Shown here: positions 647 to 20,065 of the stretch, piece after piece
Numbering within the stretch: the first letter of the stretch is position 1
Layout: the number at the start of each line of letters is the position of its first letter
Notes under the pieces: generated by a model
Seen by the model: the letters and a program-made list of their open reading frames with translations, nothing else
What the model was told of the DNA's origin: nothing
Databases searched by the model: none
Program-made: the position numbers and the translations under genes
Origin: an uncultured bacterium
GTDB taxonomy: Bacteria; Krumholzibacteriota; Krumholzibacteriia; JACNKJ01
Direction: 5' to 3'
NCBI GenBank assembly: GCA_963695095.1
Contig: CAVOFT010000001.1
Coordinates: 3,328,001-3,392,000, forward strand
Length of the DNA: 64,000 nucleotides

Positions 647-657
647 GAGGTGTGGCC

Positions 658-5631: not shown

Positions 5632-6938
5632 GGCGCCTCGCCCCGCTGCTCGCGCCGCCAGGCGAGGAACTCGCGGATGCGGGCCTCGTGGCCGTGGCCG
5701 CTCGGCTCGTAGTAGCGCCGCGCGCCGATATCCTCGGGGAAGTGGTCCTGGCGCAGGCCGCCCGCGCTGTCGTCGGGCGCGTAGACGTAGCCGTCCCCGT
5801 AGCCCAGCTCCTTCATCAGTCGCGTGGGCGCGTTGCGCAGGTGCAGGGGCACGGGGGCGTCGGGCAGGGCCTCCACGTCCGCGGCCGCGGCCTTGATCGC
5901 CGTGTAGACGCGGTTGCTCTTGGGCGCCGTGGCCAGGTAGAGCACGGTCTGCGCCACCGCGGTGTCGCCCTCGGGCAGGCCCAGGAAGTGCACGGCCTGC
6001 ATGCCGGCCACGGCGAGCTGCAGCGCGCGCGGGTCGGCGTTGCCCACGTCCTCGCTGGCGAAGCGCACGAGGCGGCGCATCAGGTAGAGCGGATCCTCGC
6101 CGCTGGCCAGCATGCGCGCCGCCCAGTAGAGCGAGGCGTCGGGGTCCGAGTCGCGCAGGCTCTTGTGCAGGGCGCTGATCAGGTTGTAGTGCTCCTCGCC
6201 CGCCTTGTCGTAGCGGTGGCTGCGCCGGCGCATCAGCTCGGCGGCGGCGGCCACCTCAAGTTGCGGCGGATCGCCCGCAAGGCTCGCCGCCAGCATCTCC
6301 AGCGAGTTGAGCGCCACGCGCGCGTCGCCGTTGCTGGCGCCGGCGATGAGCGCAAGGGCGCCCGGCTCGGCGACGACCCCCTGCGCGCCGAGGCCGCGCT
6401 CCGGGTCGGACAGCGCGCGCTCGAGCAGAACCAGGATGTCCTCCTCGTCCAGCGCCTGCAGGGTGAAGACCCGGCTGCGGCTGAGCAGCGCGCTGTTGAC
6501 CTCGAAGCTCGGATTCTCGGTGGTGGCACCGACGAGGATGATCGTTCCGTCCTCGACATGGGGCAGGAAGGCATCCTGCTGGGCCCTGTTGAAGCGGTGG
6601 ATCTCGTCGACGAAGAGCAGGGTGCGCCGGCCGCTGAGGGCCTGGCGGTCCCGGGCCGCGGCGACGATGGCGCGCACCTCCTTGACGCCGGAGGTGACGG
6701 CGCTGAAGGTGGCGAACTCCGCCGCGACGATGCCCGCCAGGATGCGCGCCAGGGTGGTCTTGCCCGTGCCCGGCGGTCCCCACAGGATGAGCGAGCTGGA
6801 CAGGGCCCCGCTCTCCAGGTAGCGGCGCAGGGGCTTGCCCTCGCCGAGGAGCTGGCGCTGGCCGAGGAATTCGTCCAGATCGCGGGGCCGCATGCGCTCG
6901 GCCAGAGGGGCCGGCGCCTTGCTCGCGAAGAGGTCCAT
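5628..6938 (-). CDS. rarA: Replication-associated recombination protein A (RarA/MgsA)
   Basis: PLAERMRP, Walker A GPPGTGKT, FVDEIHRFNRAQQDAFLP, GATTENPSF, ISALHKSLR.SD, ASEDVGNADP. Confidence 0.97.
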   Translation of the reverse strand: MDLFASKAPAPLAERMRPRDLDEFLGQRQLLGEGKPLRRYLESGALSSSLILWGPPGTGKTTLARILAGIVAAEFATFSAVTSGVKEVRAIVAAARDRQALSGRRTLLFVDEIHRFNRAQQDAFLPHVEDGTIILVGATTENPSFEVNSALLSRSRVFTLQALDEEDILVLLERALSDPERGLGAQGVVAEPGALALIAGASNGDARVALNSLEMLAASLAGDPPQLEVAAAAELMRRRSHRYDKAGEEHYNLISALHKSLRDSDPDASLYWAARMLASGEDPLYLMRRLVRFASEDVGNADPRALQLAVAGMQAVHFLGLPEGDTAVAQTVLYLATAPKSNRVYTAIKAAAADVEALPDAPVPLHLRNAPTRLMKELGYGDGYVYAPDDSAGGLRQDHFPEDIGARRYYEPSGHGHEARIREFLAWRREQRGEAP

Positions 6939-6986: not shown

Positions 6987-8405
6987 TCAGCGCACCCGGA
7001 AATCCGCCGGCCGCAGACCCAGCTTCTTCAGCAGCCGGTAGATGGTCTGCCGGGGCAGGCTCGCCAGGCGCGCCACTTCCGTGATGTTGCCGCGGGCGGC
7101 GCGCAGCAGCATGGTGAAGTACTCGCGCTGGAATCGCAGCTCGGCAGCGGCCTTCGCCTGCTTGTAGGAAAAGCCGGCGTAGGTTTCCGGAGCGATGAGC
7201 TGGAAGTCCGAGGCGGCCAGGGTCCCGTCGCGCTGGCGGATGAGCGCATTCTCGATCACGGTGCCCAGCTCGCGCACGTTGCCCGTCCAGGGCTGGCGCT
7301 GGAGCAGGCGCAGGGCCTCGATCTCGAGCGCCGGCACCGGGCGCTTCATCTCCCTCGCCTTGAGGGCGATCAGATGGTGGGCGAGCGGCTCGATGTCCTC
7401 GACGCGCTCGCGCAGAGGAGGCAGGTGCAGGCGCAGACCCAGCTGGAGCAGCAGGGGCTGCAGGAGGCGCCGCTCGCGCACTTCCCGCACGGGATCGCGA
7501 CTGCTGCCGGCGACGATCCTGGCTCGCAAGGGAATCTCCTGCCGGCTGCCCAGGGGGCGGAAGCGGCGCTCGGTGAGCATCCGGCTCAGCTTGTGCTGCA
7601 CTTCCAGGCTCAGCTCGGCGATCCCATCGAGGTAGACGAGCCCCTGCCCCGCTTCCTGGAGGCGGCCGACGCGGCGGCGATGAGCGTCGGCGAAGGCGCC
7701 CTGCTCGTGGCCGAAGAGCTCGCTCTCCAGGAGCGTCGGCGAAAAGGCGGCGCAGTTGATCGCCAGGAAGGGCTCGCTGGAATGCGCCCCGAGGGCATGC
7801 AGGGCGCGCGCACAGAGCTCCTTGCCCGTGCCGCTCTCACCGGTGACCAGCGCCGGCCGATCGCAGGAGGCAAGGCGCCGGATCTCCTCGCGCACGCGGA
7901 CGATGGCCGGGCTGTTGCCCAGCAGCTCCACCGCAGCGCCCTCGCCCGGCGCCTGAATGCGGATGCGCCCGCGGCGCAGCTCCAGGGCCGTGCGCAGGAT
8001 CAGCTTGAGCTCCTCCTCGCTCCAGGTCTTGGAGATGTAGTTGACGGCGCCCAGGCGCATGGCGCGCACGACGTTTCTCGGCTCGATGTGTTCCGAGATG
8101 ATGATCACCGGGATCTCGGGGTAATTGATCTGTAGATCTTCCAGGAGGTCGAACCCGGCCAGGAAGCGATCGAACTGCAGGTCGAGCAGGATCACCTCGA
8201 CGCTGTGCCCCAGGAGGTACTGCTGGGCTTGGCCGGGGCTGGCCACGTAGTCCAGCTCGTAGTCGCTGTCGAGCGCCATGTGCATGTCCGTCAGGAAGGG
8301 CTCGGGGACATCGTCTACCAGGAGAATGCGCGCCTTGGCGGCATCGGCGCCGTCGGCGATTCTCAGCGCGGTGCCATGGACGCTGTCGCCGGGCTCGAGC
8401 CCCAT
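6987..8405 (-). CDS. NtrC-family response regulator (REC-AAA+-Fis HTH) with degenerate sigma54-activation motifs
   Basis: REC (LLVDD, LLDL, YISK), Walker A GESGTGKE, ESELFGHE, PPLRER, GNVREL and C-terminal HTH are present. GAFTGA reads GAFADA and Walker B reads LDGI. GGAGG RBS before ATG 8405. Confidence 0.92.
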   Translation of the reverse strand: MGLEPGDSVHGTALRIADGADAAKARILLVDDVPEPFLTDMHMALDSDYELDYVASPGQAQQYLLGHSVEVILLDLQFDRFLAGFDLLEDLQINYPEIPVIIISEHIEPRNVVRAMRLGAVNYISKTWSEEELKLILRTALELRRGRIRIQAPGEGAAVELLGNSPAIVRVREEIRRLASCDRPALVTGESGTGKELCARALHALGAHSSEPFLAINCAAFSPTLLESELFGHEQGAFADAHRRRVGRLQEAGQGLVYLDGIAELSLEVQHKLSRMLTERRFRPLGSRQEIPLRARIVAGSSRDPVREVRERRLLQPLLLQLGLRLHLPPLRERVEDIEPLAHHLIALKAREMKRPVPALEIEALRLLQRQPWTGNVRELGTVIENALIRQRDGTLAASDFQLIAPETYAGFSYKQAKAAAELRFQREYFTMLLRAARGNITEVARLASLPRQTIYRLLKKLGLRPADFRVR

Positions 8406-8406
8406 C

Positions 8407-8661
8407 TCAGCGACCTCCCCGCCGGTTCGCGCGCTGGCGCTTGCCCTTGGGCCCCAGCTCCGGATAGAGGGGGATGATGGGGGCCAGTCGACTCTCGACG
8501 CCGACCGCTTCATGGGAAAGCGCCGCGATCCCCGCCCGCAGGAAGCAGCGCACCCAGCGATTGAGGGTGCGCGACGGCAGTCGCCGGGCCTGGGCCAGCG
8601 CGGGAATTTCCGCCCCGCGGAGAACTTCGAGAACGAGCTCGGCCTTGTCATTGAGTGTCAT
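8407..8661 (-). CDS. Small HTH protein (DUF1153/SciP-like or transposase-type HTH)
   Basis: KAELVLEVLRG...ALAQ...TLNRWVRCFLRAGIAAL. G-rich RBS. Its stop is one base from the regulator start. Confidence 0.65.
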   Translation of the reverse strand: MTLNDKAELVLEVLRGAEIPALAQARRLPSRTLNRWVRCFLRAGIAALSHEAVGVESRLAPIIPLYPELGPKGKRQRANRRGGR

Positions 8662-8888
8662 GTTGATCCCCCCATTGGCCCGGCCCGGGCGGGATCGCAC
8701 ACGCGGCCAGCGTTTCTTCAACATCGGTGTGACACTGGAGTAGAAACCCCTTCGTCGAGCCTTGCTGGGATTGTCTCAATTAGACTAGGCCCTCCTGCCT
8801 GGGTGCTCAAGCCGGTAGCTAGTTCCGTACACAGAAAGGTGACACTCCTCGGGAGGAAGAATCACAGCGGAGGGAAGATTCTTGGAAG

Positions 8889-11800
8889 TTATTCCAGATT
8901 ACCCAGAAGGCGCAGGTGCAGCTGGAAACGGGCGCCGCCGAGGCTGCCCGGTCCGGGCAGGCAGGCAATCCGACCGCCGAAGCCGACGACCAGCTTGCGG
9001 GCGATCACCAGGCCGTCTCCCCCCAGGGGGACCTTGCTGCTTTCCCAGGGCTCGAAGATCCGCGCGAGCCTGCCGGGCGCGACGCCGGGACCGCTGTCCT
9101 CGAAGAGAAGGCGGAGCTGGTCGCCCTGCACTTCGGCCAGCAAGTGGAGGCGACGGGACGCGCCGGCGCTCATTGCCTCGAGCGCATTGGCAATGAGATT
9201 CTCGAAGACGATCGTGAGCTGCGCCGGCTCGAAGAACACCGGGGGCGCCTGTCCACCGAGGATGGAGAGGCTGAGTTCATCCAGTGGCGGCTCGGCCTGC
9301 AGGCAGCGTGCCAGGGCCGTCTGGAAGCAGGCCACCGGGTCCGCGCCCAGCCGCTCCGCCAGCCTCGCCTCGAGCCCACAAAGCCGGGGACCCAGGCGCT
9401 CCAGCTCCCGCGCCAGCCGGAGCCAGTCTTTCGGCCGCAGCTCCGTGCCGCTGGGCGCCAGCAGCGCTCGCAAGCTGCCGCGGCCACGGGGCTCGAGCTC
9501 TGCAGGCCAGGCTGCGTCCAGGGCTGCCAGGGGAGCGCGCAGGGCTGCCAGGTCGGCGGCGGCACGGCGGCTCGCTTCCGTTCCGCCGCGTGCGGCGAGC
9601 AGGCAGGCCTCGCGCAGGGCGCTGAAGCGCTCCCGCCTCCCCTCGCGGCAGCGCAGATCCTGCAGCAGCCCGAGCAGGAGGGCTCGGGGCTGCCAGGGCC
9701 CGATATCGGGCTCGCCCCGGCGCCGCCACCAGTAGCGTGGCCAGGGTAGCGCCAGGCCGAGCGCGAGGCCGAGAAGGGCCCCGAGACCCGGCCAGACGAA
9801 CCAATCCCGATCGCAGACGCCATGGCCCGAGCCCGGCGCGATCCGGAGCAGGAGCAGCTGGCCCATGCCGAGCAGGGCGACGCCGGACTTCCGCTGGCCG
9901 GGGGAGCAGAGCGCCAGCTCCCGGATGTCACGGGCACCGCCGGGACTCTCGTGCAGGCGCGCGCGCAGCACGAAGTGCCGATCCAGCAGCAGCAGGTCGT
10001 CGGGCAGGACGACCAGCAACTGGCTCGGGCCGTCCGCGATGAAATCCGCCGTGTGCAGGGCGAGCGGCCGCCCCGGCAGGGACCAACGGCCGCGTTCCTG
10101 GAGACGGCGGTCGTAGGCGATGAGCTCGCCCTCCCCGGCGCCGAAGCCGCCGGTCGCCAGCACGAACTCGTCGCTGCCGTCGCCGTCCAGATCGAGAACG
10201 GCCACATCCTGACAGGGCCAGGGCGGCTCGATCACCAAGGTCGGCGAGCCGTCCGCGGGACGATACTCCAGCCGTGTGTTCCCGGCCTGCCCTGACTGCA
10301 GGACCCTGAGCTCGCCCAGGACATGCTTGGCGACTTGCCTGAGCACGTGCCGCCGTAGACTCGAGCCAGGTTGGCCGCAGGCCTCGCCGCGCAGCACGCG
10401 GCCTTCGCCATCCAGATCGAGACACCAGCTCGTGCCGGCCGCCTGCAGACCCGGTGGCGGCCGCGGTCCCGCGCTCGCGGCCACGGAGACCAGCAGTTCG
10501 AGCTGTCCATCGGCGTCCAGATCGGCGAGGCCCTCCAGATGGGCGGGGCCGGAGAGATCGCGCTGCCACAGGATCCCCCGCGCCGGCGAGTAGGCGAGGA
10601 GGCCGCCAGGCGGGTCCAGGCCCGCCTGCGTGTAGGCGAACAAGAAGCCCTCGTCCTCCGGCAACGCGAGCATCTGATTGAAGCGCGGCGCCGGAAAGCC
10701 GGCAGCCGGCCGGGCGGCCGCGGGCAGCGCCAGCAGGCGTTCCGTTCCCGCCGCCTGCGTTGGGGATGCCAGCCGGAGCCTATGCAGCTCGAGAGCGTCG
10801 TCGGCCCAGCGGCTGAGCAGGATCTGCCTCCGCCCGCTGCCGTCCAGGTCCGCTGCGCCCAGGAGGCTCCAGCTGCCGGCACTGGCCAGGGGGATCGACT
10901 CGGACCCAGCCCGCCCTTGCGCCCTTTGCAGCAGCAGCCAGCTTGCCGAAGACGACTCGCTGTGGAGCAGGAGAGCGGCATTGTCCGCACTATCTCCCTC
11001 CAGGTCCGCGCAGAGCAGGTGGGCCGTCGCCGCCTCGAAGGTGATCGACTCCTGCACGCGGAAGTGATGCGTGGTCGGACCTCTCGGCTCAGTGCTGCCG
11101 GCGGGCCGAGCGGCAGCCAGAAGCGCCATCAGCGCGAGCAGGCCGGCCACTGCGCTGCGGGTTCTCGCGGTGGGCCTGCCCTCGTCCCGCATGGGCAGTC
11201 GCAGTCGCAGGGCATCGCCTTCCCGCCGAGCGTCGGCGAGCTCCGATTGCCGCTCGCTGAAGGCTGCCCAGCGCGCCGCCGTCGCCTCGCTGTCACTGCC
11301 GCCCGGCGTTTCGGCACTGAGCTGGAGGACATCCCGCTCTACAGCGAGACAGAGCCGCAGCGACACCCCGCCTTCCCGCGGAATGCGGGTCAAGCCGATC
11401 TCCACGAGGCCGCTGATCGCGTCTGCGAATTCTGCGAATCTCAGATTGAGACGACGCTGCGCGAGGTCGCCGGTCAATCGGAGCTCGAAAGGGACCCCGG
11501 CGGCGGCGGTCAGTCCCTGGAGCGTGGGCAGCAGCTGCAGCAGCTGGTCGAGCACCGGCTTCTGCGCCCGCAAGCGGACGCGCTCGGCGAGCGCCCGCGA
11601 GCATTGGCTCAAGTCCTGACAGCGATCTTGCAGTTCTGCGCCCTGCTCGATGGCGACTGCCCGCGGGTCCCCATCGGCTCGAAGCCGTCCCAGCGCCTCC
11701 CGCAGTGCGCTGGCGCCGGCGAGCACCCTCTCCGCTTCCGGGTCGTCGCCGAGAATGCGGCCTGCCAGCGGCGCCAGCTTGAGCAGTTCGCCCAGCGTCT

Positions 11801-13604
11801 CCTGCACCTCGGCCGCGGTGCCCAGCAGGTTCCTCCGGCGTTCGGCGGTGTCCTGATCCCGCAGGTGACCCACGCGCTTGGCCAGGCTGGGTAGCCGCGC
11901 GGAGAGACTGCCGCCATGGGCGAACAGGCGCAGACCCTCATCCAGCTCCTGCCACAGCGCCTCCTCCTGCTCGGGAGTCGGCAGCGCACTCGAGGCGGAG
12001 TCGCCCCAGCCGCCAGGCCGCAAGCTCCGCTGCTGCCGGCGCAGAAGCAGGACCAGCCAGAGGATCGCCAGCGCCGCAGCGGCGAGGAGGCCAATGAGCA
12101 GGCCGCGCAGGCGGCCCCATCCTGACTTCGGCTCCGTCCCTGTGACCGGGCTCGGTCCGGCAAAATCGGGATTGGGCTCGAGCCGCAGCATCCCGACCTG
12201 CTGCGGAGCCAGGCCGGCGACCGCGAGGCGCGGAATCCCGTCCCCGCCCCGCCAGCAGCGCAGCTGGATAAGGGGATTCACCAAGCGCTCCGTCAGGCCG
12301 CTTGGCCACAGGGCCAGCGGCACGAGCGCCCGGTCGCAGACCAGCAGGTCATCGCCGACGCGCAGGACGAGTTCCGGCCAGGTATCGCCGGTCAGGTCGG
12401 CTGCGCAGAGGGGCTGGACGGAAGGCGCGAACCACCAGCGCGCGCGCTCCTCGAGCCGGCTGTCGAGGAGAAGCAGGCTGCCGTCGGCCAGCCCGATCAG
12501 GACGTCCTCCGCGCCGTCGCCATCCAGATCCGCCACCAGGGGCGGGCCGGTCAGGCCACCTGGCAGCGGCCGCGCCCGCACCAGGAGCCCCGCGGCGTCG
12601 TAGAGGCGCAGCTCGTCAGCCTGGGAGCGGCTCAGGCTCGCCAGCACCAGGGGCAGCGCCTGCGCGCTCGGACGCAGGGGTTGCGTGGCGGCGAGGGTGG
12701 CGAACGCGCCCGCCTGCACGTTCAGCCGATCGCGGCCCGTCAAGTCGATCACCCGCCAGTAGGAATGGTCATCGCTGCCGCGCGCACAGGAGTCGCCATT
12801 GCCGCTGGCGTAGCTGGACAGGAAGAGCTCGCGCTGGGAGTCCCCATCCAGGTCGGCAAGATGATAGCCGAAGGTGTTGTTGGGCAGGCGGATCTGCGTG
12901 CGCAACACTCCCTGCAGGTCGTAGACCAGGAGCCCGCGCGGCGCGCTCCGCCAGTTGAAGCCCGCCATGGTCTGGACAAGGATGCGGCCCTCCGGGGCCA
13001 GGATCCGGCCCTCGAGATGGCTGCGCGGCAAGTGCTCGTGGCCCGAGCCCTCATGTCCCACCGCGATGTCGGCAAGCACGAGCAGCGTGTCGCACTGCAC
13101 CGTTCCCGTAGCGCCCCGCCGCAGGCGCTCTAGCCAGAAGCCCAGGCGCCGGTGCTCGCTGTCGTAGTGCCAGAACAGCAGCTCTTCGGCACCGTCCCCG
13201 TCCAGATCGCCACCGCCGGCCAGGCCGCCCTGATAGAGGGGAAAGTTCCACTGCCAGATCGGATTCTGGGGAGCCGCGAGTTCGAAGAGGAGGACGCTGC
13301 TCAGCCCTTCGCCCAGGGGTTCACGGCCGCTGGCCAGGAACTCGGGCGTCGCGTCGCCCAGGAGCTGGGCCAGCCGGAACTCCGTGGCGGCGAAGGAGCC
13401 CTCCTTGGCCAGGCGCCAGGGCAGGGTGGCGGGAGCCGGCAGGGCGTTGCGAGGCCTGTCATCGCCGACCGCCGAGTTCCCCCGGTGGGCCGGCAGGAAC
13501 AGGAGCAGGCAGAGGCAGGCCGACAGCAGGGGCCGGCGAGGCGGCGTCGTCCGCAGCATGGCGCCCCATTCGATGGGTGACCCATCGAGTCTATCAGCTT
13601 TCAT
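8889..13604 (-). CDS. Tandem double sensor: FG-GAP propeller-TM-degenerate kinase-like region, fused to a second FG-GAP propeller-TM-HATPase
   Basis: Multiple D(L)DGDG..E FG-GAP motifs and three internal hydrophobic segments. C-terminal HATPase boxes ENLIANALEA, EDSGPG, IFEP, GGDGL. Start could instead be ATG 13559. Confidence 0.85.
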   Translation of the reverse strand: MKADRLDGSPIEWGAMLRTTPPRRPLLSACLCLLLFLPAHRGNSAVGDDRPRNALPAPATLPWRLAKEGSFAATEFRLAQLLGDATPEFLASGREPLGEGLSSVLLFELAAPQNPIWQWNFPLYQGGLAGGGDLDGDGAEELLFWHYDSEHRRLGFWLERLRRGATGTVQCDTLLVLADIAVGHEGSGHEHLPRSHLEGRILAPEGRILVQTMAGFNWRSAPRGLLVYDLQGVLRTQIRLPNNTFGYHLADLDGDSQRELFLSSYASGNGDSCARGSDDHSYWRVIDLTGRDRLNVQAGAFATLAATQPLRPSAQALPLVLASLSRSQADELRLYDAAGLLVRARPLPGGLTGPPLVADLDGDGAEDVLIGLADGSLLLLDSRLEERARWWFAPSVQPLCAADLTGDTWPELVLRVGDDLLVCDRALVPLALWPSGLTERLVNPLIQLRCWRGGDGIPRLAVAGLAPQQVGMLRLEPNPDFAGPSPVTGTEPKSGWGRLRGLLIGLLAAAALAILWLVLLLRRQQRSLRPGGWGDSASSALPTPEQEEALWQELDEGLRLFAHGGSLSARLPSLAKRVGHLRDQDTAERRRNLLGTAAEVQETLGELLKLAPLAGRILGDDPEAERVLAGASALREALGRLRADGDPRAVAIEQGAELQDRCQDLSQCSRALAERVRLRAQKPVLDQLLQLLPTLQGLTAAAGVPFELRLTGDLAQRRLNLRFAEFADAISGLVEIGLTRIPREGGVSLRLCLAVERDVLQLSAETPGGSDSEATAARWAAFSERQSELADARREGDALRLRLPMRDEGRPTARTRSAVAGLLALMALLAAARPAGSTEPRGPTTHHFRVQESITFEAATAHLLCADLEGDSADNAALLLHSESSSASWLLLQRAQGRAGSESIPLASAGSWSLLGAADLDGSGRRQILLSRWADDALELHRLRLASPTQAAGTERLLALPAAARPAAGFPAPRFNQMLALPEDEGFLFAYTQAGLDPPGGLLAYSPARGILWQRDLSGPAHLEGLADLDADGQLELLVSVAASAGPRPPPGLQAAGTSWCLDLDGEGRVLRGEACGQPGSSLRRHVLRQVAKHVLGELRVLQSGQAGNTRLEYRPADGSPTLVIEPPWPCQDVAVLDLDGDGSDEFVLATGGFGAGEGELIAYDRRLQERGRWSLPGRPLALHTADFIADGPSQLLVVLPDDLLLLDRHFVLRARLHESPGGARDIRELALCSPGQRKSGVALLGMGQLLLLRIAPGSGHGVCDRDWFVWPGLGALLGLALGLALPWPRYWWRRRGEPDIGPWQPRALLLGLLQDLRCREGRRERFSALREACLLAARGGTEASRRAAADLAALRAPLAALDAAWPAELEPRGRGSLRALLAPSGTELRPKDWLRLARELERLGPRLCGLEARLAERLGADPVACFQTALARCLQAEPPLDELSLSILGGQAPPVFFEPAQLTIVFENLIANALEAMSAGASRRLHLLAEVQGDQLRLLFEDSGPGVAPGRLARIFEPWESSKVPLGGDGLVIARKLVVGFGGRIACLPGPGSLGGARFQLHLRLLGNLE

Positions 13605-13637
13605 CTTTAGGAGATAGCGCTAATTCGAGGATCATCA

Positions 13638-15968
13638 TCATGAATCAGAGGCGGCGACCTGCCGCGAGCGCTCCGGCCCTTCGGCGAGGATGAACGCCAG
13701 CTGCACGCCGCCGTCCTGGCAGCGCAGGCCGCAGTGCAGGCGCGCGGCCGCCGCCGCGATGCCGAGCCGCTCCAGGTCGGCCGCGCCCGGAGCCGATCCT
13801 GCCAAATCGTCCCGGCAAGCGACCAGGAGCTGCGTGGGCTCGCGCCGCGCCTGCAGCAGGAGCACTCCCGCTCCGCCGCGGGCGCGCTGCCGGAAGAGTT
13901 GCCCGAGCAGGACGAAGAGCTGATCGGCCTCATCCGGATTGGCGACTGGCGCCTCGTCCCGCCAGTCGCCGGCGAGATCGAGGCGAAGCGAGAGTCCAAC
14001 GGCGGCGAAGCGGGTGAGCAGGAGGCCGATGAAAGCAGCGGGCGGGACGGCGAGTCGCGCGTCAACCTGCAGGTGCAGGGCCTCGATTCCGGCGCTGATC
14101 GCCCGCGCCGCCCGTTCCGCGGCGGCCAGCTCGTTGGCAGGCGGCAAGCGGTCGGGAGCGAGAACAGAGGCGAGCTGCGCGAGCCGCTCGGCGTCCGCCT
14201 GGAAGGCCCGGCAGCGCAGCTTGTCCCAGGCTCCGGCCGCGGCCAGGTCGCCGATCTGCCGCAGGATGGGCAGCGTCTGCAACCGAAAGGCCGCCGCCGC
14301 CGCCCGCAGGCGGGGGAAATAGCGCGCCGCCGTGTCCCGCTCCCCCTGGCTGTTGCGCAGGGCGAAGATCAGGCTGTCGAGCTGGCCACGGGCGGCGGCA
14401 CTATGGCGAAAGCCACGGAGCTGGTCGCGCAGCGGGCGCCAGCACTCCGCCGCCGTCGCCGCGCCGGCCGCGGACCCTCCCCGCTTCAGCCAGAGCGACC
14501 CTGCGAGCGAACCGATGGCCAGGCCTGCGACAGCTGCGATGAGCGCCAGAAGCCAGCGCGCCGGCTCGCCCCGCGCTTGCGCGGCCGCCCCCGGCAGCAG
14601 CTCGAGCAGCAGCGAAGCCCCCGGCTGACCGCGACTCATGGCGACGAAGCGCCGACCCTCCGCGCTGACCCAGCCGGTCGCTTGCTGAGGCAGCTGATGC
14701 GAGTAGAGCAACTCGCCGTCCCAGAGCGCCAGCGGCGCCAGCGTCTGGTCGAAGAGGCCGAGCCGATTGCCGACCGCGATCAGGAGATCCGGCCGGCCAC
14801 GGCCGCGCAGATCCACCGCCGCCAGTGGGCCCACCGCGGCCGCGAAGCGCCAGTCGGCGAGCAACTGCAGATCGCGATCGAGGAGCAGCAAGCGGCCGTC
14901 CGTGAGGCCGAGCAGCAATTCATCGCTGCCATCGCGGTCCCAGTCGACGACCAGACTGCGCCAGAGGGCCGCCGGCAGGCTACGCTCGCGCAGGAGGCGA
15001 CCGTCCGCGGCGTAGATGCGCAGGGGACAGTGCTCACCCTCGCCGAGCAGCAGCGCCGCAATGGCGGGGGCCTGCCCCGCGATGCGCATGGGCTGGGTCT
15101 GGGCCTCGCTGAAGGCGCCGCCCGCTTCGACGTCAAGCAGGCGGCGGGCGTCGGCATCGATCACCCGCCAGTAGGAGTGGCAGTCGTCCTCGCCGGGCAG
15201 CCTCTGGCCGTTGCAGGTGGCATGCGTGCCGAGGAAGAGCTCCGGCCGGCCGTCGCCGTCGAGGTCGGCCAGCGCCGTGATGTAGACATTCGGGGCGGCG
15301 GCGGCGTGCCGGCGCAGACGACCCTGCGCATCGAGCAGGAGCGGGCCGCGGGGCGCCAGGCCAAAGCCCGCGACAGGCAGGGCGACCCAGAGATCCGCCG
15401 CCGCATCGAGCCGCCCCGACCCGTGCATCTGCGGGGCGAACTCGGCGCCGGCGCCGGCAGTCGGCACTGGAATCGCCTCGCTGCGCCAGAGCGTCTCGGT
15501 CCGCAATCCACCGGGGCCGAGGCGCAGGGCGTCCGCCCGGAGCCGGAAGCCGCCTTCGTCGCGGATCCAGAAGAGCAGCTCTTGGCGTCCGTCGCCGGCC
15601 AGCAGATCCGCCGTGCCGGCCAGGCCGCCCTGGCCGGCGACGAAGTTCCATTGCTTGAGAGGACGCGACACCGAGCCCTCCAGCCGCGAAGCCAGCACGA
15701 AGCTGTGGCTGAGCGTATCGGGGCCTGCCCCGCAGGTGACGAGCTCCGGTGCGCCGTCGCCATCGAGATCGAGGACGAAGAGCTCACTCCCCCGCAGGGC
15801 CAGGCAGGTCTCCAGGGTCAAGGGCAGGGAATCCCGCGCGGGCAGCCCGACGGGCAGGGGCGCCGGCTCGCTGGTCACCCTGTGCGGCACGAGCGCGAGC
15901 AGGAGCAGGGCGACGCCCAAGCGGCGGACAACAGCGCAGCGCCTGCCATTGGGGATCCGGGTGCGCAT
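13638..15968 (-). CDS. FG-GAP beta-propeller membrane sensor with degenerate histidine-kinase-like cytoplasmic region
   Basis: GGAGGG RBS before ATG 15968, signal peptide, DLDGDG repeats, TM WLLALIAAVAGLAIGSLAGSLWL. Paralogous to the modules in 8889-13604 (shared D.HSYWRVID). Confidence 0.85.
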   Translation of the reverse strand: MRTRIPNGRRCAVVRRLGVALLLLALVPHRVTSEPAPLPVGLPARDSLPLTLETCLALRGSELFVLDLDGDGAPELVTCGAGPDTLSHSFVLASRLEGSVSRPLKQWNFVAGQGGLAGTADLLAGDGRQELLFWIRDEGGFRLRADALRLGPGGLRTETLWRSEAIPVPTAGAGAEFAPQMHGSGRLDAAADLWVALPVAGFGLAPRGPLLLDAQGRLRRHAAAAPNVYITALADLDGDGRPELFLGTHATCNGQRLPGEDDCHSYWRVIDADARRLLDVEAGGAFSEAQTQPMRIAGQAPAIAALLLGEGEHCPLRIYAADGRLLRERSLPAALWRSLVVDWDRDGSDELLLGLTDGRLLLLDRDLQLLADWRFAAAVGPLAAVDLRGRGRPDLLIAVGNRLGLFDQTLAPLALWDGELLYSHQLPQQATGWVSAEGRRFVAMSRGQPGASLLLELLPGAAAQARGEPARWLLALIAAVAGLAIGSLAGSLWLKRGGSAAGAATAAECWRPLRDQLRGFRHSAAARGQLDSLIFALRNSQGERDTAARYFPRLRAAAAAFRLQTLPILRQIGDLAAAGAWDKLRCRAFQADAERLAQLASVLAPDRLPPANELAAAERAARAISAGIEALHLQVDARLAVPPAAFIGLLLTRFAAVGLSLRLDLAGDWRDEAPVANPDEADQLFVLLGQLFRQRARGGAGVLLLQARREPTQLLVACRDDLAGSAPGAADLERLGIAAAAARLHCGLRCQDGGVQLAFILAEGPERSRQVAASDS

Positions 15969-16043
15969 GACCCTCCGGGGACGGAATCTACATATAAGGA
16001 GGATAGCGCGATTTGGCCGCGGGGGCGGCATGCAGGACGGGAA

Positions 16044-16063
16044 CTGTCGCCCTGTTGCGACAG
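16044..16063. promoter_or_regulatory. Candidate operator, inverted repeat CTGTCGC-N6-GCGACAG
   Basis: Perfect 7-bp arms, ~75 bp upstream of the sensor operon start. Confidence 0.45.
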
Positions 16064-16091
16064 CTGCTCGCGCGAACGCGCAGCGTCCCTG

Positions 16092-17945
16092 CTACTTGAG
16101 CAAGAGCAGCTTCTGGCGGCCGAGATCGCGGTCGTCCAGCCGCAGGCGGGCGAAGTAGACGCCGCTGGCGACGCGGGCGCCGCGGCTGTCGCGGCCGTCC
16201 CAGCGGGCGAAGCCCGGGCCGGCGGGCAGCGCCTCGTCGAGCAGCGTGCGCAGCGCCCGCCCCTGGGCGTCGAGGATCTCCAGCCTGACGCGGCCGCCTG
16301 CGTTCAACTCGTAGCGCAGTCGCGTGCTCGGATTGAAGGGATTGGGGTGCGGCGCGAGCAGACGCCCCGCCCCAGCGTCCGGGAGCTCAGGCGCGGCGGT
16401 CCAGCCGAAGCCGGCGTCGCTGATCACCTGCCCGAGATAGGGACCCTGGGCAAGCGGCGCCGTGGGCGGCTGCGGATCCTCGCCCGAGCGAATGTACTCC
16501 TCGATGCTGTCAACGGCGATATGGCCCCAGCTCTGGCTGCTGAGGTCCGCGATGACGAGGAAGACGGTCTGCCCCGCGAGGCTGGAGAGGTTCCACAGCC
16601 GCGGCGTGAGGACATGGCTGTCCATGCCCGTCTCCGAGAAGAGGATGCGCTCGTCGCTGGCGCGCACCAAGGCCACGAAGGTGAGGGCGGGCTTGTTGCC
16701 GCCGCCGACGAGCAGCTTCATGCGATCGCCGCTCACGGTGAAGTCGTCGCTGCGGATCAGGCCGGTGGGCACATTGCCCTGGATGCGACCGGGCGGATAG
16801 ATGTCCGGGTCGTGGAAGAACTCATAGGTGGCGACATAGCTGTTGCCTTGCATCCCCGTGGGCACGCCGTTGCGCTCGTAGGGATTGTCGCCCCAGGTCG
16901 GCTGGAAGTTGAAGGCGGTGCCGAAGACGGTCGTCCAGTTGTCGGCGAAGCCTTCGTGGTAGCTGATCGTGGGCTCGCCCCCGGGCTCATCGAAGCTCAC
17001 ATCCCCGAAGCGGAAGAAGAAGCGGGTGCCGTCGCGCAGCTCAAGGCCGCGATGCAGACTCCAGAGGTCGGGCTCGCCGGGAATGCTCGTGATCTCGTTG
17101 GCATGGCCTTCGTCGATGTAGGTGCGATTGGCCTTGGACCAGGCGCCGGTGAAGCTGGGACTGGCGATGTGGCTGATCTGCTGCTCGCCCCCTTCCGTGA
17201 AGAACAGGTGGTAGTAGCCCCCGCGCTTCACGAGCTGCACGCTTTCGAGAACATTCCTGCTATCGTTGACGAAGAAGGCGCCGAGGTCCGTCCAGGGGCC
17301 CAGGTTGTTGCTGATGGCATGGCTGATGCCGCCCATGCTGTCCGGCGCGACGCTGACCGAGTTGAGCAGATACCACTGGGAACTGCCGTCTTCGTGGAAG
17401 AGCTCCGGATCGCGGCAGTTGGACCACTGGCCCGGGCTCCAGATCGCCCAGCTGCCGGGGCGGTACAGCGGGTTGCCCGCCCAGCGATACCAGTGGAAGA
17501 GATCGTAGGACGAGGCGAGGCCCGTTTGCTGCGTCAGGCCCCAGTTGGAGCCCGTGTAGTACATCAGCCAGTCGCCGCTGTTGGGATCGTCGATGATCTT
17601 CGGCGCCCAGACGAACTCCGACTCCCAGGCCGGCGGATTGGGGATGTCGACGGATAGGACGCTGTCCTGGCGCGTCCAGTGCCTGAGGTCGGGGCTCGTG
17701 ATGTGCCCGAACCACTGCTCCTTGCGCAGGTAGTGGCCGTCGGGCGGCAGGCTCTGGATGTAGAACACGTGATAGATGCCGTTGTGCTTGACCACCGCGT
17801 GGTCCTTGCACTGGATGCCCATCGTCTCGAAGAAGAAGGGGCGCTCGAAGTCGGCGAGCAGGAGGGCATCGGCTGCGGAAGTCCGAAGCATGAGAACGGC
17901 AAGGGCCCCTAGGAGAACCCGCGCGGCCATGGGGAAACGTGGCAT
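16092..17945 (-). CDS. Secreted GH32/GH-J-like five-bladed beta-propeller + accessory beta-sandwich + FlgD-Ig/T9SS-like CTD
   Basis: KDHAVVKHNGIYHVFY, HITSPDLRHW, VWAP, NCRDP (RDP motif), VLES; PNPFNP CTD. Confidence 0.85.
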   Translation of the reverse strand: MPRFPMAARVLLGALAVLMLRTSAADALLLADFERPFFFETMGIQCKDHAVVKHNGIYHVFYIQSLPPDGHYLRKEQWFGHITSPDLRHWTRQDSVLSVDIPNPPAWESEFVWAPKIIDDPNSGDWLMYYTGSNWGLTQQTGLASSYDLFHWYRWAGNPLYRPGSWAIWSPGQWSNCRDPELFHEDGSSQWYLLNSVSVAPDSMGGISHAISNNLGPWTDLGAFFVNDSRNVLESVQLVKRGGYYHLFFTEGGEQQISHIASPSFTGAWSKANRTYIDEGHANEITSIPGEPDLWSLHRGLELRDGTRFFFRFGDVSFDEPGGEPTISYHEGFADNWTTVFGTAFNFQPTWGDNPYERNGVPTGMQGNSYVATYEFFHDPDIYPPGRIQGNVPTGLIRSDDFTVSGDRMKLLVGGGNKPALTFVALVRASDERILFSETGMDSHVLTPRLWNLSSLAGQTVFLVIADLSSQSWGHIAVDSIEEYIRSGEDPQPPTAPLAQGPYLGQVISDAGFGWTAAPELPDAGAGRLLAPHPNPFNPSTRLRYELNAGGRVRLEILDAQGRALRTLLDEALPAGPGFARWDGRDSRGARVASGVYFARLRLDDRDLGRQKLLLLK

Positions 17946-17968
17946 CGCTCACCTCACGAGAGGCCACT

Positions 17969-17977
17969 ATTCTAGCA
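17969..17977 (-). promoter_or_regulatory. Extended -10 element TGCTAGAAT
   Basis: TGnTAnnnT about 24 bp upstream of ATG 17945; no well-spaced -35. Confidence 0.4.
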
Positions 17978-18064
17978 GATCCGGCGGCGGGGCGGGGGCG
18001 CAAATGCACGGGTGATCGGGGTCCGAAACGATGCGAAATCAGGAGCTTGTCCTGGAAACGGCGC

Positions 18065-19114
18065 TCAACCGACGGCGTCGCTCTCCCGCTCCCTGGCCTG
18101 CTGGGCAAGCACGCCGAAGGCTTCGGCGCGGCGCGGGTCCTGGCGCTCGGCATAGATGCGGCTGAGCAGGGCATACACCTGGGCCAGATCCCCCTTGCCC
18201 TCGGGAAGGCGCGCGAGCTGCTGCTCGGCGGCACTGAGCTCCCCCATTCCCACCAGCAGCTCGGCCCGACCCAGCGCGGCGCGCGCATAGCTCGGGTTCA
18301 GCTCCAGCGCCTTGCCGAGCTGCAGCAGCGACGCCTCGCGATGCTCGCTCTCCTGGAGCAGGCGGGCGAGATCGTAGCGCAGGTCCGGCCAGTCCGGCTG
18401 CAGGGCCACGGCGCGCTCGAGCAGCGTCACCGCCGCCGCCAGCTCACCCCGTCGATCCCGCTCGGCCGCCAGCTCGCGCAGGAGCTCGATGGACTGCGGC
18501 CAGCGTTGGCAACCGCGTTCGAGCAGATCGCAGGCCGCCTTCGCCTCGCCCGCTCGCCGCTCCCAGCGAGCGCGGTAGAGCCAGTGCCGATCGGGCTGCC
18601 GTCCGCAGAGGGCGGCCCAGGCATAGAGCCGGCGACCAGCTTCCGCCTCGGCGCGATAGCTGAAGAACTCGCCCATGGCCGCGAAGAGGCGGCGGAAGGC
18701 TGGACAGAGCAGCGCCCGCCGCGCTGCCGGCGCTTCGCTCGCCAGAGGCGCCACGGTGGCGAGCAGGGCTTCTCCTTCTTCTGCGCCCACTGAGAAAGCC
18801 TGGCGCAGCTCCTCGGCCACGGCCTCGGCGGCCGGCGGCGGAGCGCTCGGGCGCAGCCCGCCCTGGGCGGCGAGCCAGGTTTCCCAGAGCTGCCGATCCG
18901 CGAAGCCGGCCGCCTGCGCGGCCAGACTCGCTCGGGCCTCGGCGGCCGCGGCGAGGAGGGTATCGGCTGTCGGGGGATCGCTCTCGATCAGCAGCTGCCC
19001 GCGCAGCAGCGAGTAGAGACCCCACTCGAGCGTGAGATCCGGGTAGGGCGGGTGCTGCTCGCGCCGCCACCGGTAATAGGGTTCGATGCGCTCGAGGAGG
19101 GCGATCCAGTCCAT
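18065..19114 (-). CDS. Tetratricopeptide-repeat protein
   Basis: C-terminal TPRs (LERAVALQPDWPDLRYDLA, KALELNPSYARA); 6 bp downstream of glpX. Confidence 0.8.
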   Translation of the reverse strand: MDWIALLERIEPYYRWRREQHPPYPDLTLEWGLYSLLRGQLLIESDPPTADTLLAAAAEARASLAAQAAGFADRQLWETWLAAQGGLRPSAPPPAAEAVAEELRQAFSVGAEEGEALLATVAPLASEAPAARRALLCPAFRRLFAAMGEFFSYRAEAEAGRRLYAWAALCGRQPDRHWLYRARWERRAGEAKAACDLLERGCQRWPQSIELLRELAAERDRRGELAAAVTLLERAVALQPDWPDLRYDLARLLQESEHREASLLQLGKALELNPSYARAALGRAELLVGMGELSAAEQQLARLPEGKGDLAQVYALLSRIYAERQDPRRAEAFGVLAQQARERESDAVG

Positions 19115-19120
19115 GCCGCC

Positions 19121-20065
19121 TCAGCTCTCGAAGAAGTGCTGCGCCTCGATCGTGCGAATCGTGCGCGAATGGCTGCGCATCACGATGCTGTGCGTGCTGC
19201 AGCCGCCCTTGTAGAAGCGCACGCCGCGCAGGAAATCGCCATCGGTGATCCCCGTCGCCGCGAACATGATGTTCTCGCCCATGGCCAGGTCCTGGAGATG
19301 GAAGATCTGGCCCGGATCGACCAGTCCCATGCCCAGGGCGCGCTCGCGTTCGGCCTCGTTGCGGAAGGCGAGGCGCGCCTGCATGTCCCCGCCCAGGCAG
19401 CGCAGCGCGGCCGCGGCGAGCACACCCTCCGGCGCTCCGCCGGTGCCGAGCAGGATGTCCACCGTGGCCTGCTCCACCGCCGTGGCGATGGCCGCCGAGA
19501 CATCGCCATCCGGGATCAGATGGATCCGACAGCCCACCTTGCGCACGCGGGCGATGAGCTGCTCGTGGCGCTCACGGTCAAGGATGGCCACCGTGAGATC
19601 GTGCACGGGCAGGCCCTTGGCCTCGGCGACGGCATGGAGGTTCTCCTCGGGGCTGCGCCGGATGTCGATGGCGCCCACGGCGGCCGGCCCCACGGCGATC
19701 TTCTCCATGTAGGTATCGGGGGCATGCAGGAACTGCCCGCGCGGCGCCACGGCGACCACCGAGAGGGCATTGGGCCGCCCGTAGGCCACGCTGTTCGTGC
19801 ACTCCAGGGGATCCAGGGCGATGTCCACCGCCGGCTCCTCCCCGGTGCCCACCGGCTCGCCGATGTAGAGCATCGGCGCTTCGTCGCGCTCACCCTCGCC
19901 GATGACGACCGTGCCGTCCATCGCGATCCTCGCGAAGCCCTCCCGCATCGCCGTGGTCGCGGCCTGATCGGCAGCATTGGGATCACCGCGTCCCAGCAAG
20001 CGAGACGAGGCGATCGCCGCCGCCTCGGTGACACGAACGATCTCGAGTGCCAGGTTGCGATCCAT
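19121..20065 (-). CDS. glpX: Class II fructose-1,6-bisphosphatase
   Basis: RVTEAAAI, VIGEGERDEAPMLYIGE, DIALDPLE, PDTYMEKI, DGDV, GGAPEGV, ATGITDG. Confidence 0.97.
   Translation of the reverse strand: MDRNLALEIVRVTEAAAIASSRLLGRGDPNAADQAATTAMREGFARIAMDGTVVIGEGERDEAPMLYIGEPVGTGEEPAVDIALDPLECTNSVAYGRPNALSVVAVAPRGQFLHAPDTYMEKIAVGPAAVGAIDIRRSPEENLHAVAEAKGLPVHDLTVAILDRERHEQLIARVRKVGCRIHLIPDGDVSAAIATAVEQATVDILLGTGGAPEGVLAAAALRCLGGDMQARLAFRNEAERERALGMGLVDPGQIFHLQDLAMGENIMFAATGITDGDFLRGVRFYKGGCSTHSIVMRSHSRTIRTIEAQHFFES

Follow-up and report, generated by a model that had tools for sequence, protein, structure and literature searches.

Could kinase-like proteins that lack either the H-box histidine or the ATP site, and that are usually dismissed as orphans or pseudokinases, work together as the parts of a naturally split kinase? 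This question is raised by a locus within a 64,000-nucleotide stretch of DNA (termed here the window), where two genes lying side by side seem, from their sequences, to encode three paralogous membrane sensor modules: two, A and B, that combine a conserved histidine with a dead ATP domain, and one, C, that shows the reverse combination. The definition given in passages of PMC3591291 is that a split histidine kinase performs ATP binding and phosphotransfer on two distinct proteins or modules. The sequence features of A and B, on the one hand, and of C, on the other, are segregated as this definition requires, and the conserved histidine would then take the phosphotransfer role.

Layout of the locus

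All modules follow one plan: first a signal/anchor, next an FG-GAP beta-propeller of about 430 residues in the periplasm, then a transmembrane (TM) helix and, after 13-23 residues of flexible linker, a cytoplasmic core that resembles a kinase. Gene A encodes one such module, in the order signal/anchor, FG-GAP propeller, TM helix, histidine-bearing hairpin and degenerate kinase core; modules B and C are covalently joined in a single polypeptide, which contains four hydrophobic segments. Both genes are full-length open frames with a coding-type GC3 of 0.85-0.86. Database copies exist of gene A (P0014, which starts at M22, 15966-15968) and of gene B-C (P0018, 1556 aa). The features of the locus are as follows.

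16092..17945, minus strand: GH32/GH43-like secreted protein of the five-bladed-propeller type with a FlgD_ig tail; upstream same-strand neighbour, given for context
13638..16031, minus strand: gene A (P0002; 797 aa as the longest ORF), a stand-alone His-type module
14592..15854, minus strand: A, periplasmic FG-GAP/VCBS-type beta-propeller (about residues 60-480; Pfam FG-GAP_3, E 7.3e-9)
14496..14552, minus strand: A, transmembrane helix (residues 494-512), with a Gly/Ala-rich linker at 513-529
14370..14432, minus strand: A, conserved motif LRDQLRGFRHSAAARGQLDSL (residues 534-554), its His invariant in 4/4 sequences of the A family and in 11/11 His-type tails
13641..14495, minus strand: A, cytoplasmic tail (513-797), a helical region plus a degenerate GHKL-like domain that lacks the N-box Asn and the G2 box
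8889..13604, minus strand: gene B-C (P0001, 1571 aa), a single ORF in which His-type module B is fused to kinase-type module C
13479-13529, minus strand: B, signal/anchor (residues 26-42), N-terminal to the B propeller
12135..13442, minus strand: B, periplasmic FG-GAP propeller (about residues 55-490), from Pfam and likeness to the A propeller
12045..12101, minus strand: B, TM2 (residues 502-520), a hydrophobic segment
11976-12044, minus strand: B, Pro/Gly-rich linker of 23 residues (521-543), predicted to be disordered (pLDDT below 50 over tail residues 1-18)
11883..11945, minus strand: B, conserved motif LDEGLRLFAHGGSLSARLPSL (residues 554-574), its His invariant in 6/6, 10/10 and 11/11 sequences of three alignments
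11568..11975, minus strand: B, helical region (residues 544-679) with six helices predicted by AF2
11190..11555, minus strand: B, degenerate GHKL-like domain (residues 684-805), from AF2, Foldseek and the B-C alignment
11109..11159, minus strand: TM3 (residues 816-832), where the chain returns to the periplasm; Arg residues flank its cytoplasmic side
9810..11027, minus strand: C, periplasmic FG-GAP propeller (about residues 860-1265; Pfam FG-GAP at 1134-1157)
9735..9797, minus strand: TM4 (residues 1270-1290), a hydrophobic segment
9348..9695, minus strand: C, helical region (residues 1304-1419), predicted by AF2 to be a His-free juxtamembrane hairpin followed by a DHp-like pair
8907..9338, minus strand: C, catalytic ATP-binding domain (residues 1423-1566; Pfam HATPase_c)
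8407..8724, minus strand: small HTH_28 ORF (105 aa; HTH_28, E 8.9e-6) between the kinase gene and the regulator
6987..8405, minus strand: response regulator of the NtrC type (472 aa with the ATG at 8403-8405 as start) with REC, sigma-54 AAA+ and HTH_8 domains

The propellers of A and B are 41% identical (E 4e-55), and that of C is about 30% identical to each of them (E 6e-8 to A and 8e-11 to B). As a weak lead, the ligand of the propellers may be a glycan. Downstream, the stop codon of the HTH_28 ORF overlaps the probable ATG of the regulator, whose Pfam matches (Response_reg, E 2.9e-15; Sigma54_activat, E 3.4e-48; HTH_8, E 3.3e-4) place it in the NtrC family. The regulator retains the full set of REC residues (DD, D, S and K), with the phospho-acceptor Asp at 8181-8183; its sigma-54 contact loop reads GAFADA, not GAFTGA. 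A scan of 44 ORFs of the window found no HATPase_c protein besides P0001.

ATP site and kinase fold

The original prediction had described module C as devoid of histidine yet equipped with the boxes of a HATPase, and both halves of that description hold. Within P0001, HATPase_c is matched at residues 1461-1566 only (Pfam, E 5.4e-12), and the boxes (N, 9171-9218; G1, 9081-9101; F, 9048-9062; G2, 9006-9026) contain the strings ENLIANA (from residue 1468), EDSGPG (1502), IFEP (1516) and GGDGL (1528), with LLQDLRCREG from residue 1313. Nine residues of these boxes--E1468, N1469, N1473, D1503, G1505, G1507, F1517, G1529 and G1531--are invariant in 6/6 C modules. The stretch of P0001 from residue 1262 to 1486 is free of His, no column that is invariant across the six C tails contains one, and the H-box has decayed to AALRAPL at 1353-1359 (9528-9548). 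Aligned by hhalign to 96 canonical kinases, the C tail gives a probability of 100% (E 1.6e-42), and it is best aligned, by sequence and by fold, to two-component kinases of the NtrB/FixL/ZraS type. Sequence searches of the PDB matched the C region only, DivL being among the matches, and found nothing in the His-type tails; the ESM Atlas yielded HATPase_c clusters at 0.92-0.93, which is a lead at most.

The set of N, G1, F and G2 boxes that marks a class I kinase is thus found in C and not in A or B. That the tails of A and B lack these boxes had been claimed as well, and it holds inasmuch as neither gene A nor the B half of P0001 gives a kinase-like Pfam match, even when the isolated tails are searched at E<=10; what the claim missed is that a degenerate GHKL-like alpha/beta domain has been kept. 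In B this domain has Ile in place of the Mg-binding Asn and is without ATP lid and G2 box, so that residues 684-805 would, judging from these replacements, form a CA-like domain unable to bind ATP; it superimposes in Foldseek on the CA domain of VanS with a TM-score of 0.67-0.68 and an rmsd of 3.3-3.4 A. The tails of A and B align with each other over 273 columns (hhalign probability 93%, E 5.5e-8), and that of A with the 96 canonical kinases at a probability of 49% (E 1.7e-4). Between the A/B tails and the C tail global hhalign failed, and local alignments, colinear over 240-249 columns, reached E 0.03-0.055.

A DHp-CA fold, which a kinase of this kind would need, is predicted by the AF2 models of the B tail (pLDDT 84.4, pTM 0.70) and the C tail (pLDDT 88.2, pTM 0.82). 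Foldseek matches the former to the DHp-CA structures of SrrB, HK853 and CpxA (E about 1e-4) and the latter to those of YF1 (E 6e-11) and ZraS (E 1.7e-10), with a probability of 1.00 to all five, as is expected of a DHp-CA fold. Hence a histidine-kinase-like fold is the predicted fold of all three tails, from these models for B and C and from the hhalign alignment to B for A.

A predicted complex of the C tail and the B tail with ATP and Mg scored 0.47, as compared with 0.24 for the best control; at least 88% of contacts agreed between runs, and the pLDDT of the partner was at least 79. Among solved complexes, 116 of 157 attain the pass mark of this procedure, as do 2 of 215 mismatches, and passes at or below 0.60 comprise 18 of the 157 solved complexes together with both of the mismatches that passed. 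Because solved kinase dimers exist, the pass may reflect likeness to them and not real binding; the model weakly suggests that the B and C tails form a complex.

The conserved histidine

A and B share the invariant motif L-x3-L-R-x3-H. Its histidine is encoded in A at 14403-14405 (His543, with Arg539 at position -4) and in B at 11916-11918 (His563, with Arg559 at -4), exactly the codons to which the original prediction had drawn attention, and the motif strings quoted there are likewise all present: WRPLRDQLRGFRHS in P0002 and WQELDEGLRLFAHG in P0001. The prediction would have suffered had this histidine varied; it is invariant in the 4/4 sequences of the A family, in 6/6 B-C proteins and in all 11 His-type tails of a joint alignment that includes a distant tail only 29% identical to A. 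Among the first 100 columns of that alignment only L(-9), R(-4), H(0) and L(+8) are invariant, and the residues after the histidine vary (GG, SA, HG, SN, SR) while H and R(-4) stay constant. Judged by these alignments, the conservation of the motif appears to exceed chance, the statistics being those of few and partly close sequences (three A relatives, five B-C relatives and one distant pair).

Where the original prediction of a split kinase requires revision is in the location of this histidine, which falls outside any recognisable DHp H-box. It lies some 35 residues upstream of the canonical H-box position, where a helical hairpin next to the membrane is predicted to turn; in B, the AF2 secondary structure puts His563 at the end of predicted helix 1, at the turn into helix 2. 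The canonical position itself is Ala in all three modules: A580 in A, A598 in B (within the H-box remnant A598-E-V-Q-E-T-L, as compared with the canonical H-E-L-R-N-P-L) and, in C, either A1353 (from hhalign to the 96 kinases) or A1357 (from the YF1/FixL alignment). The alignments of B and A to the canonical kinases are of low confidence (hhalign probability 61% and 49%), and A580 was transferred through the A-B alignment. Against a DHp-only profile of the 96 kinases, the 11 His-type helical regions gave no significant alignment (probability 1%, E 0.05), and as this register differs from that of the alignment which gave A598, it is uncertain exactly which residue of B is equivalent to the canonical one; in none of the registers tried does His563 fall on the canonical His. 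The presence of Ala at the canonical site in both module types suggests, by parsimony, that the canonical site was already lost or displaced in the ancestor they share.

In the 11-tail alignment the hydrophobic residues at -12, -9, -5 and -2 follow a 3-4-3 heptad in which R(-4) and H(0) occupy positions b and f, that is, an exposed face; from this spacing it can be argued that the R-x3-H tip is exposed. Its LRxxxH element may resemble an H-box of the CitA/DcuS type. Neither the A and B tails nor 81-aa fragments around the histidine match HisKA, HisKA_2/3, His_kinase, SPOB_a or Hpt at E<=10.

Three known identities were considered for the hairpin and rejected: HPt and Spo0B-type, for which there were zero Pfam matches at E<=10, and HAMP, for which Pfam likewise gave no match at E<=10. 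Helices 1 and 2 of B are separated in the AF2 model by a 3-residue turn, with no long HAMP-like connector.

The two kinds of module have been retained together. The B-C fusion is kept in 5/5 full-length relatives, the architecture of A and B-C in relatives at 41-68% identity and also in a distant, long-branched lineage, and the complementarity of histidine and ATP site in every relative found, which supports that part of the split-kinase prediction at the level of sequence and fold. The distant lineage is represented by a MAG locus (L001) in which a His-type gene (P0174, with the motif REFRHS) shares 4 nt with the beginning of a kinase-type gene (P0026, recovered by exhaustive search only) whose HATPase_c is intact (E 1e-10); for 10 kb to both sides of this locus there is no response regulator. 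A near-length search with module C alone returned 10 matches, each covering 14-20% of the query (the catalytic domain), and no stand-alone C. In what could be checked, therefore, His-type and kinase-type modules are obligately co-encoded. Relatives of the A type and of the B-C type are inferred to share contigs, from equal contig sizes (22851 and 269238) only; a scan of genome contigs with the A family gave 30 pattern matches and 0 relatives. In a tree of all 18 modules, the His-type and kinase-type modules separate with 100/99 support, so that the division of labour is older than the divergence of those lineages.

Competing readings and known systems

The reading preferred here, with a probability of about 0.45, is that of a naturally split kinase in which C phosphorylates the hairpin histidine of B and/or A and the phosphate then passes to the regulator. 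C would bind ATP and phosphorylate His563, which lies on the same chain in B, and/or His543 of A; from the phospho-histidine the phosphate would move on to the Asp of the NtrC-type regulator encoded downstream, an activator of sigma-54 promoters. The conserved histidine is thereby taken, from its sequence context, as a candidate phosphotransfer site; to our knowledge, an R-x3-H site at a hairpin tip is not a described type of phospho-histidine site in two-component systems. Since disorder is predicted for the linkers that connect the cores to the membrane, ligand-dependent association or rearrangement of modules would be likelier than a rigid helical relay. A broader proposal, possible but somewhat doubtful, is that a lineage of class I transmembrane kinases has independently come to share the logic of CheA: the histidine of the bundle was lost, the acceptor came to lie at the R-x3-H hairpin tip, acceptor and catalyst were segregated after duplication, and output depends upon the encounter of two or three differently liganded propellers. 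An AND gate over several propeller inputs, the logic put forward in the original prediction, would be one conceivable way of combining the signals.

The main alternative, somewhat less likely, is a pseudokinase assembly without any phospho-histidine, in which C serves as a switch whose conformation depends on ATP binding or hydrolysis, as in NifL or DivL, A and B are scaffolds, the R-x3-H tip is a site of protein contact or ligand binding, and control of the regulator comes from direct binding or from a kinase encoded elsewhere. Such an assembly would account for the absence of the canonical H-box His from all three modules, for the failure of the His motif to match any phosphotransfer family and for the lack of an adjacent regulator in L001; moreover, NifL is the second-best NCBIfam match to the catalytic domain of C (E 1.2e-10, far below its cut-off), and DivL is among the PDB sequence matches. 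The NCBIfam matches are restricted, however, to the catalytic domain, and the NifA-type partners of NifL are not known to keep the REC phospho-acceptor residues, whereas the regulator adjacent to C keeps every one of them. It is also left unexplained why, across a deep split, the histidine is kept exactly where ATP binding has been lost, and vice versa.

It is improbable that C is instead a GHKL Ser/Thr protein kinase, akin to the mitochondrial PDK/BCK enzymes or to SpoIIAB/RsbW, that acts on the A and B tails or on another protein, with the histidine as a non-acceptor. C does lack a His acceptor, and the Foldseek matches to the B tail include PDK3 (1y8n, rank 42) and PDK2 (7ea0, rank 50) over 321-348 aligned columns; the TM-scores to PDK are low, however (0.26 on the query), the C tail is closest to two-component kinases of the NtrB/FixL/ZraS type, and the operon encodes a regulator with a REC domain. 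Least probable is that A and B arose by duplication of a sensor kinase and are now in decay, their histidine being structural (helix capping) and C being dead or served by an unlinked partner, for although their GHKL domains are degenerate and the histidine sits at a helix C-terminus, followed in B by Gly, both genes remain full-length with GC3 at coding values, the architecture persists at 41-68% identity and in the distant lineage, and H and R(-4) are constant among varying post-histidine residues.

What sets the locus apart is a conserved natural pair or triple of modules with exactly complementary defects, each with its own extracellular sensor, fused or adjacent, and with a sigma-54 regulator downstream. 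A literature search returned no histidine kinase with a periplasmic FG-GAP propeller and no heterodimeric histidine kinase, and its pseudokinase matches were unrelated. If phosphotransfer does occur in the split kinase proposed here, this would be the first transmembrane split kinase outside the CheA class, with a new position for the phospho-acceptor histidine; it would be a clear case, in signaling, of duplication, degeneration and complementation, and a natural template, with multi-input logic, for engineered two-component systems. If it does not, the locus still represents a pseudokinase assembly that has been conserved, and its invariant Arg-His tip calls for an explanation.

Among known systems, the closest in logic are CheA3/CheA4 of Rhodobacter sphaeroides, described in parts of PMC3591291 as carrying ATP binding and the histidine on separate cooperating proteins, and PilL-N/PilL-C (Hik36/Hik43) of Synechocystis, for which the relevant passages of PMC7656254 describe the same separation. 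As those passages portray the CheA class, the dimerisation bundle that adjoins the ATP domain is free of His and the histidine is on a separate helical element, as seems to be the case here; its members are soluble, use an HPt domain (P1) and are coupled to chemoreceptors, whereas A, B and C are transmembrane sensors. In the present locus the kinase derives from an NtrB/FixL-like class I ancestry, the histidine element has no HPt match, and two additional TM helices connect one of the His modules with the kinase module in a single chain.

Spo0B and ChpT have a C-terminal kinase CA fold that no longer binds ATP. They also bear their histidine on a helical hairpin, as described in part of PMC11481889, much as A and B are predicted to do. 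Spo0B and ChpT are, however, soluble and are fed by relay from a receiver domain; no extra REC domain is present here, so that the donor would have to be the catalytic domain of C. Neither of the two is among the best 50 Foldseek matches to the B tail.

Module C resembles kinases of the NtrB/ZraS/FixL type, to which it aligns by sequence and fold (YF1/FixL, 4gcz; ZraS, 9jfj), and, as in those systems, it is paired with a downstream regulator composed of REC, sigma-54 AAA+ and HTH_8 domains. It differs from them in that the H-box His has become Ala (AALRAPL as opposed to HELRNPL), in its FG-GAP propeller input, and in the disordered linker that replaces HAMP or PAS between TM helix and core.

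Finally, DivL, with Tyr in place of the His, is an allosteric regulator of CckA, and in EnvZ an H-box mutant and an ATP-site mutant complement each other within one dimer. The modules described here are likewise kinase-fold proteins that miss one catalytic requirement yet would take part in signaling. The splitting of EnvZ in vitro is mentioned in a passage of PMC3591291. Unlike the engineered pair of EnvZ mutants, the defects of A, B and C are natural, conserved and encoded side by side.

Gene order, architecture and topology

The original prediction was of a split kinase made of three modules, A, B and C, of which C alone carries a recognizable HATPase and acts on a histidine in A or B, which might create an AND-gate over several propeller inputs. 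The sequence strings and coordinates on which it was based are all correct, and all three modules are present, with the refinement that B and C are the N- and C-terminal halves of a single protein, P0001. The window has a GC content of 70%, and the features considered here are the following:

16092-17945, minus strand: secreted GH32/GH43-like protein, in a gene row with A and P0001
13638-16031, minus strand: gene A (P0002, 797 aa)
14445-14495, minus strand: linker from TM segment to first helix, A
14403-14405: His543 of A
8889-13604, minus strand: P0001 (1571 aa), modules B and C
11976-12044, minus strand: linker from TM segment to first helix, B
11916-11918: His563 of B
about 9696-9734, minus strand: linker from TM segment to first helix, C
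8407-8724, minus strand: small ORF (105 aa) with HTH_28 (E 8.9e-6), between kinase gene and regulator
6987-8405, minus strand: NtrC-type response regulator
5200-5631, minus strand: GNAT acetyltransferase which, with MgsA, comes last in the minus-strand gene row

The TGA of the HTH_28 ORF overlaps the likely regulator ATG (TGAGATG, about 8403-8409); a 554-aa ORF at 6987-8651 is therefore probably an over-extension, with the regulator starting at 8405.

All three periplasmic parts contain FG-GAP repeats (Pfam); the propellers of A and B are 41% identical (E 4e-55), and the C propeller shares about 30% identity with each of them. Four hydrophobic segments occur in P0001 (residues 26-42, 502-518, 816-832 and 1270-1286), and their Arg-rich flanks lie on the sides required to be cytoplasmic. 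These features predict the order propeller(out)-TM-tail(in)-TM-propeller(out)-TM-tail(in), and place both P0001 tails, as well as that of A, in the cytoplasm. Sensor kinases normally run the TM helix on into a HAMP or DHp domain, so that a disordered linker is unusual; here, in each module, the TM segment is followed by a Gly/Pro/Ala-rich stretch of 13-23 residues that varies between relatives and is predicted to be disordered (pLDDT <50). Linkers of this kind speak against a rigid helical relay and would favour control through association of the modules.

A glycan ligand for the propellers is only a lead, suggested by the adjoining GH32/43-like gene, by a Pfam match to the lambda-carrageenase propeller that falls below cut-off (25.5 versus 26.8 bits) and by PDB matches to YesW/PL11 at E about 0.1. 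Four secreted proteins--two GH32/GH43-like paralogues, a papain-family peptidase with PKD and an ASH/HYDIN-Ig protein--end in an FlgD_ig domain (16092-17945, minus; 22864-24765, plus; 1374-4862, minus; 55365-58481, minus); together with weak NCBIfam matches of protein P0003 to T9SS sorting domains, this suggests that the organism has a T9SS-like C-terminal sorting signal. The window also holds a large polysaccharide synthesis and export region (32308-49339 and 60274-63998), with Bac_transf, Poly_export/SLBB, several GT4 glycosyltransferases, a heparinase II/III-like protein, UDP-GlcNAc 2-epimerase, asparagine synthase, an AMP-binding enzyme, polysaccharide deacetylase and a GDSL lipase.

Conservation and homology of the modules

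Besides its own record, A has three relatives (64-68% identity). P0001 has five full-length relatives (1518-1553 aa, 41-60% identity), plus one unrelated catalytic-domain match, and these five show the B-C fusion to be genuine and conserved. An exhaustive HMMER search of 1.84 billion representatives, with module C as query, yielded 46,153 matches at E<=0.001, two of which, both fused B-C proteins, reached E<=1e-30; among the matches listed, the remainder align to the catalytic domain only, except for P0026 (831 aa), where the propeller is matched as well. The family is rare and its architecture conserved.

HATPase_c is restricted to P0001 residues 1461-1566 (Pfam, E 5.4e-12), as predicted, and HisKA has no Pfam match anywhere in A or P0001. 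In C, residues 1463-1533 contain the N, G1, F and G2 boxes, and E1468, N1469, N1473, D1503, G1505, G1507, F1517, G1529 and G1531 are invariant in all six sequences. Also as predicted, C lacks a phosphoacceptor histidine: P0001 residues 1262-1486 contain no His, and none is conserved in the C tail among the six aligned sequences. Conversely, His543 is invariant in A (4/4) and His563 in B (6/6), and the GHKL domain of the A and B tails is degenerate, with neither ATP lid nor G2 box and without the Asn that binds Mg, which is replaced by Ile in B as well as in P0174 (introduced below).

From end to end, the tails of A and B are homologous (hhalign, 273 columns, probability 93%, E 5.5e-8), with the histidines aligned. 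Alignment of either to the C tail reaches only E 0.03-0.055, yet is colinear across 240-249 columns, with the B segment FAEFADAISGLVEIGLTR opposite the N-box region of C. AF2 models of the B tail (residues 521-817, 10 aligned sequences, pLDDT 84.4, pTM 0.70) and C tail (1291-1571, 14 sequences, pLDDT 88.2, pTM 0.82) are alike: in each, a disordered linker leads into consecutive helices and then an alpha/beta domain. In Foldseek searches of the PDB, the C model retrieves YF1/FixL (6e-11) and ZraS (1.7e-10), then CpxA and HK853; the B model retrieves the DHp-CA structures of SrrB, HK853, CpxA and AgrC (E about 1e-4) and superposes on the isolated VanS catalytic domain (TM 0.67-0.68, rmsd 3.3-3.4 A). 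By these models and the A-B homology, A and B are degenerate kinase cores rather than unrelated domains.

A genome scan with P0026 as query located this gene on a distant MAG contig (L001). P0026 is a single kinase-type module--propeller, TM, helical region and intact HATPase_c (E 1e-10)--whose helical region aligns to the C tail (probability 98%, E 3.7e-14). The gene directly upstream shares 4 nt with it and encodes P0174 (807 aa), a His-type module comprising a propeller, a TM segment and then YWQELYPSIREFRHS, with no HATPase_c match in its tail; the identity of P0174 to A is 29% across 513 aa (E 2e-39). The His is invariant in 11/11 His-type tails (MAFFT), where the motif L, R, H, L supplies the only four invariant columns among the first 100. 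An ML tree of all 18 modules, with no rows dropped, separates A, B and P0174 from C and P0026 with support of 100/99, both L001 branches being long and deviating from the rest in composition. Given this support and the distant adjacent pair, the division into His-bearing, ATP-dead and His-less, ATP-competent modules is old and has been maintained, the two types staying adjacent or fused.

The L001 pair is flanked by citrate-lyase/aconitase genes and heterodisulfide-reductase-like Fe-S/FAD genes (598-6534 and 13428-21859), and the 10 kb on either side of it contain no response regulator. In both L001 (12772-13386, plus) and the window, the kinase genes are followed at a short distance by one for a GNAT acetyltransferase, which may be coincidence. 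The scan's other locus (L002, 10001-10252, Lentisphaeria MAG) matched only 73 residues of FG-GAP repeat (38% identity) and was rejected as a relative.

Position of the conserved histidine

Structure prediction, proposed originally as a check for DHp-like bundles with an exposed His, recovers the DHp-CA fold for B and C but puts the His elsewhere. His563 is residue 43 of the B model, between helix 1 (24-42) and helix 2 (46-63), and hence is predicted to form the tip of a hairpin that lies next to the membrane, ahead of the DHp-like helices. Across His-type tails, hydrophobic residues at -12, -9, -5 and -2 from the His have 3-4-3 heptad spacing, which would put R(-4) and H(0) at b and f positions on an exposed face. 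HisKA types, SPOB_a and Hpt gave no Pfam match at E<=10 to the tails or to 81-aa His fragments.

Against a profile of 96 canonical kinases with an HE[LI]xxPL H-box, the C tail aligns with probability 100% (E 1.6e-42), the H-box facing the remnant AALRAPL (1353-1359) and its His facing A1353; PDB profile alignment to YF1/FixL instead places the His at A1357, so that neither register has a His. The B tail aligns with probability 61% (E 8.1e-5), HELrnPL facing the remnant AEVQETL, which begins at A598; carried over to A by way of the A-B alignment, A598 corresponds to A580, which is invariant. The canonical phospho-His position is thus Ala in A, B and C, and Arg in P0026. The helical-region alignments are weak, the helix-only comparison being non-significant and in a different register, and in none of their registers does the invariant His fall on the canonical site.

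Because Ala occupies this site in both module types, parsimony suggests that their common ancestor had already given it up, a point in favour of the hairpin His as the functional acceptor; alternatively, the ancestor may have been a pseudokinase.

Proposed phosphotransfer, output and related systems

The best-supported reading, to which a probability of roughly 0.45 is assigned, is that of a natural split kinase in which the C catalytic domain would phosphorylate the hairpin His in B, in A or in both, whence the phosphate would be handed to the downstream regulator. The original interpretation is thereby supported in part: the complementary features, folds, co-encoding and tree agree with C acting on A or B, whereas the His lies off the canonical H-box. 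A predicted complex of the C and B tails with ATP and Mg scored 0.47 versus 0.24 for the best control, a weak signal that may reflect likeness to solved kinase dimers.

The regulator, the putative target, comprises REC (E 2.9e-15), sigma-54 AAA+ (3.4e-48) and HTH_8 domains, and looks phosphorylation-dependent, since its REC residue set is complete (VDD, LLDLQ, IIISE, YISK). Its sigma-54 contact loop reads GAFADA (7683-7700, minus), the usual consensus being GAFTGA. No other HATPase_c protein was found among the 44 window ORFs scanned, a set that leaves out 50326-52872, where two long ORFs (798 and 787 aa) overlap on opposite strands.

In the open-access literature searched, no description of FG-GAP-propeller kinases or of a 'heterodimeric histidine kinase' was found. 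Spo0B and ChpT carry an ATP-less CA-like domain. These two are described as hairpin-type phosphotransferases (PMC11481889). CheA3/CheA4 and Hik36/Hik43 are known split kinases of the CheA class, and in an earlier survey 3.66% of HisKA proteins lacked HATPase (PMC3591291; PMC7656254). The system described here shares its logic with both groups, and would belong, as a variant, to the known kind of split or complementing histidine kinases. Unlike either group, however, it is transmembrane, derives from an NtrB/FixL-like kinase, contains an unclassified His element and has two additional TM helices by which one of its His modules is fused to the kinase.
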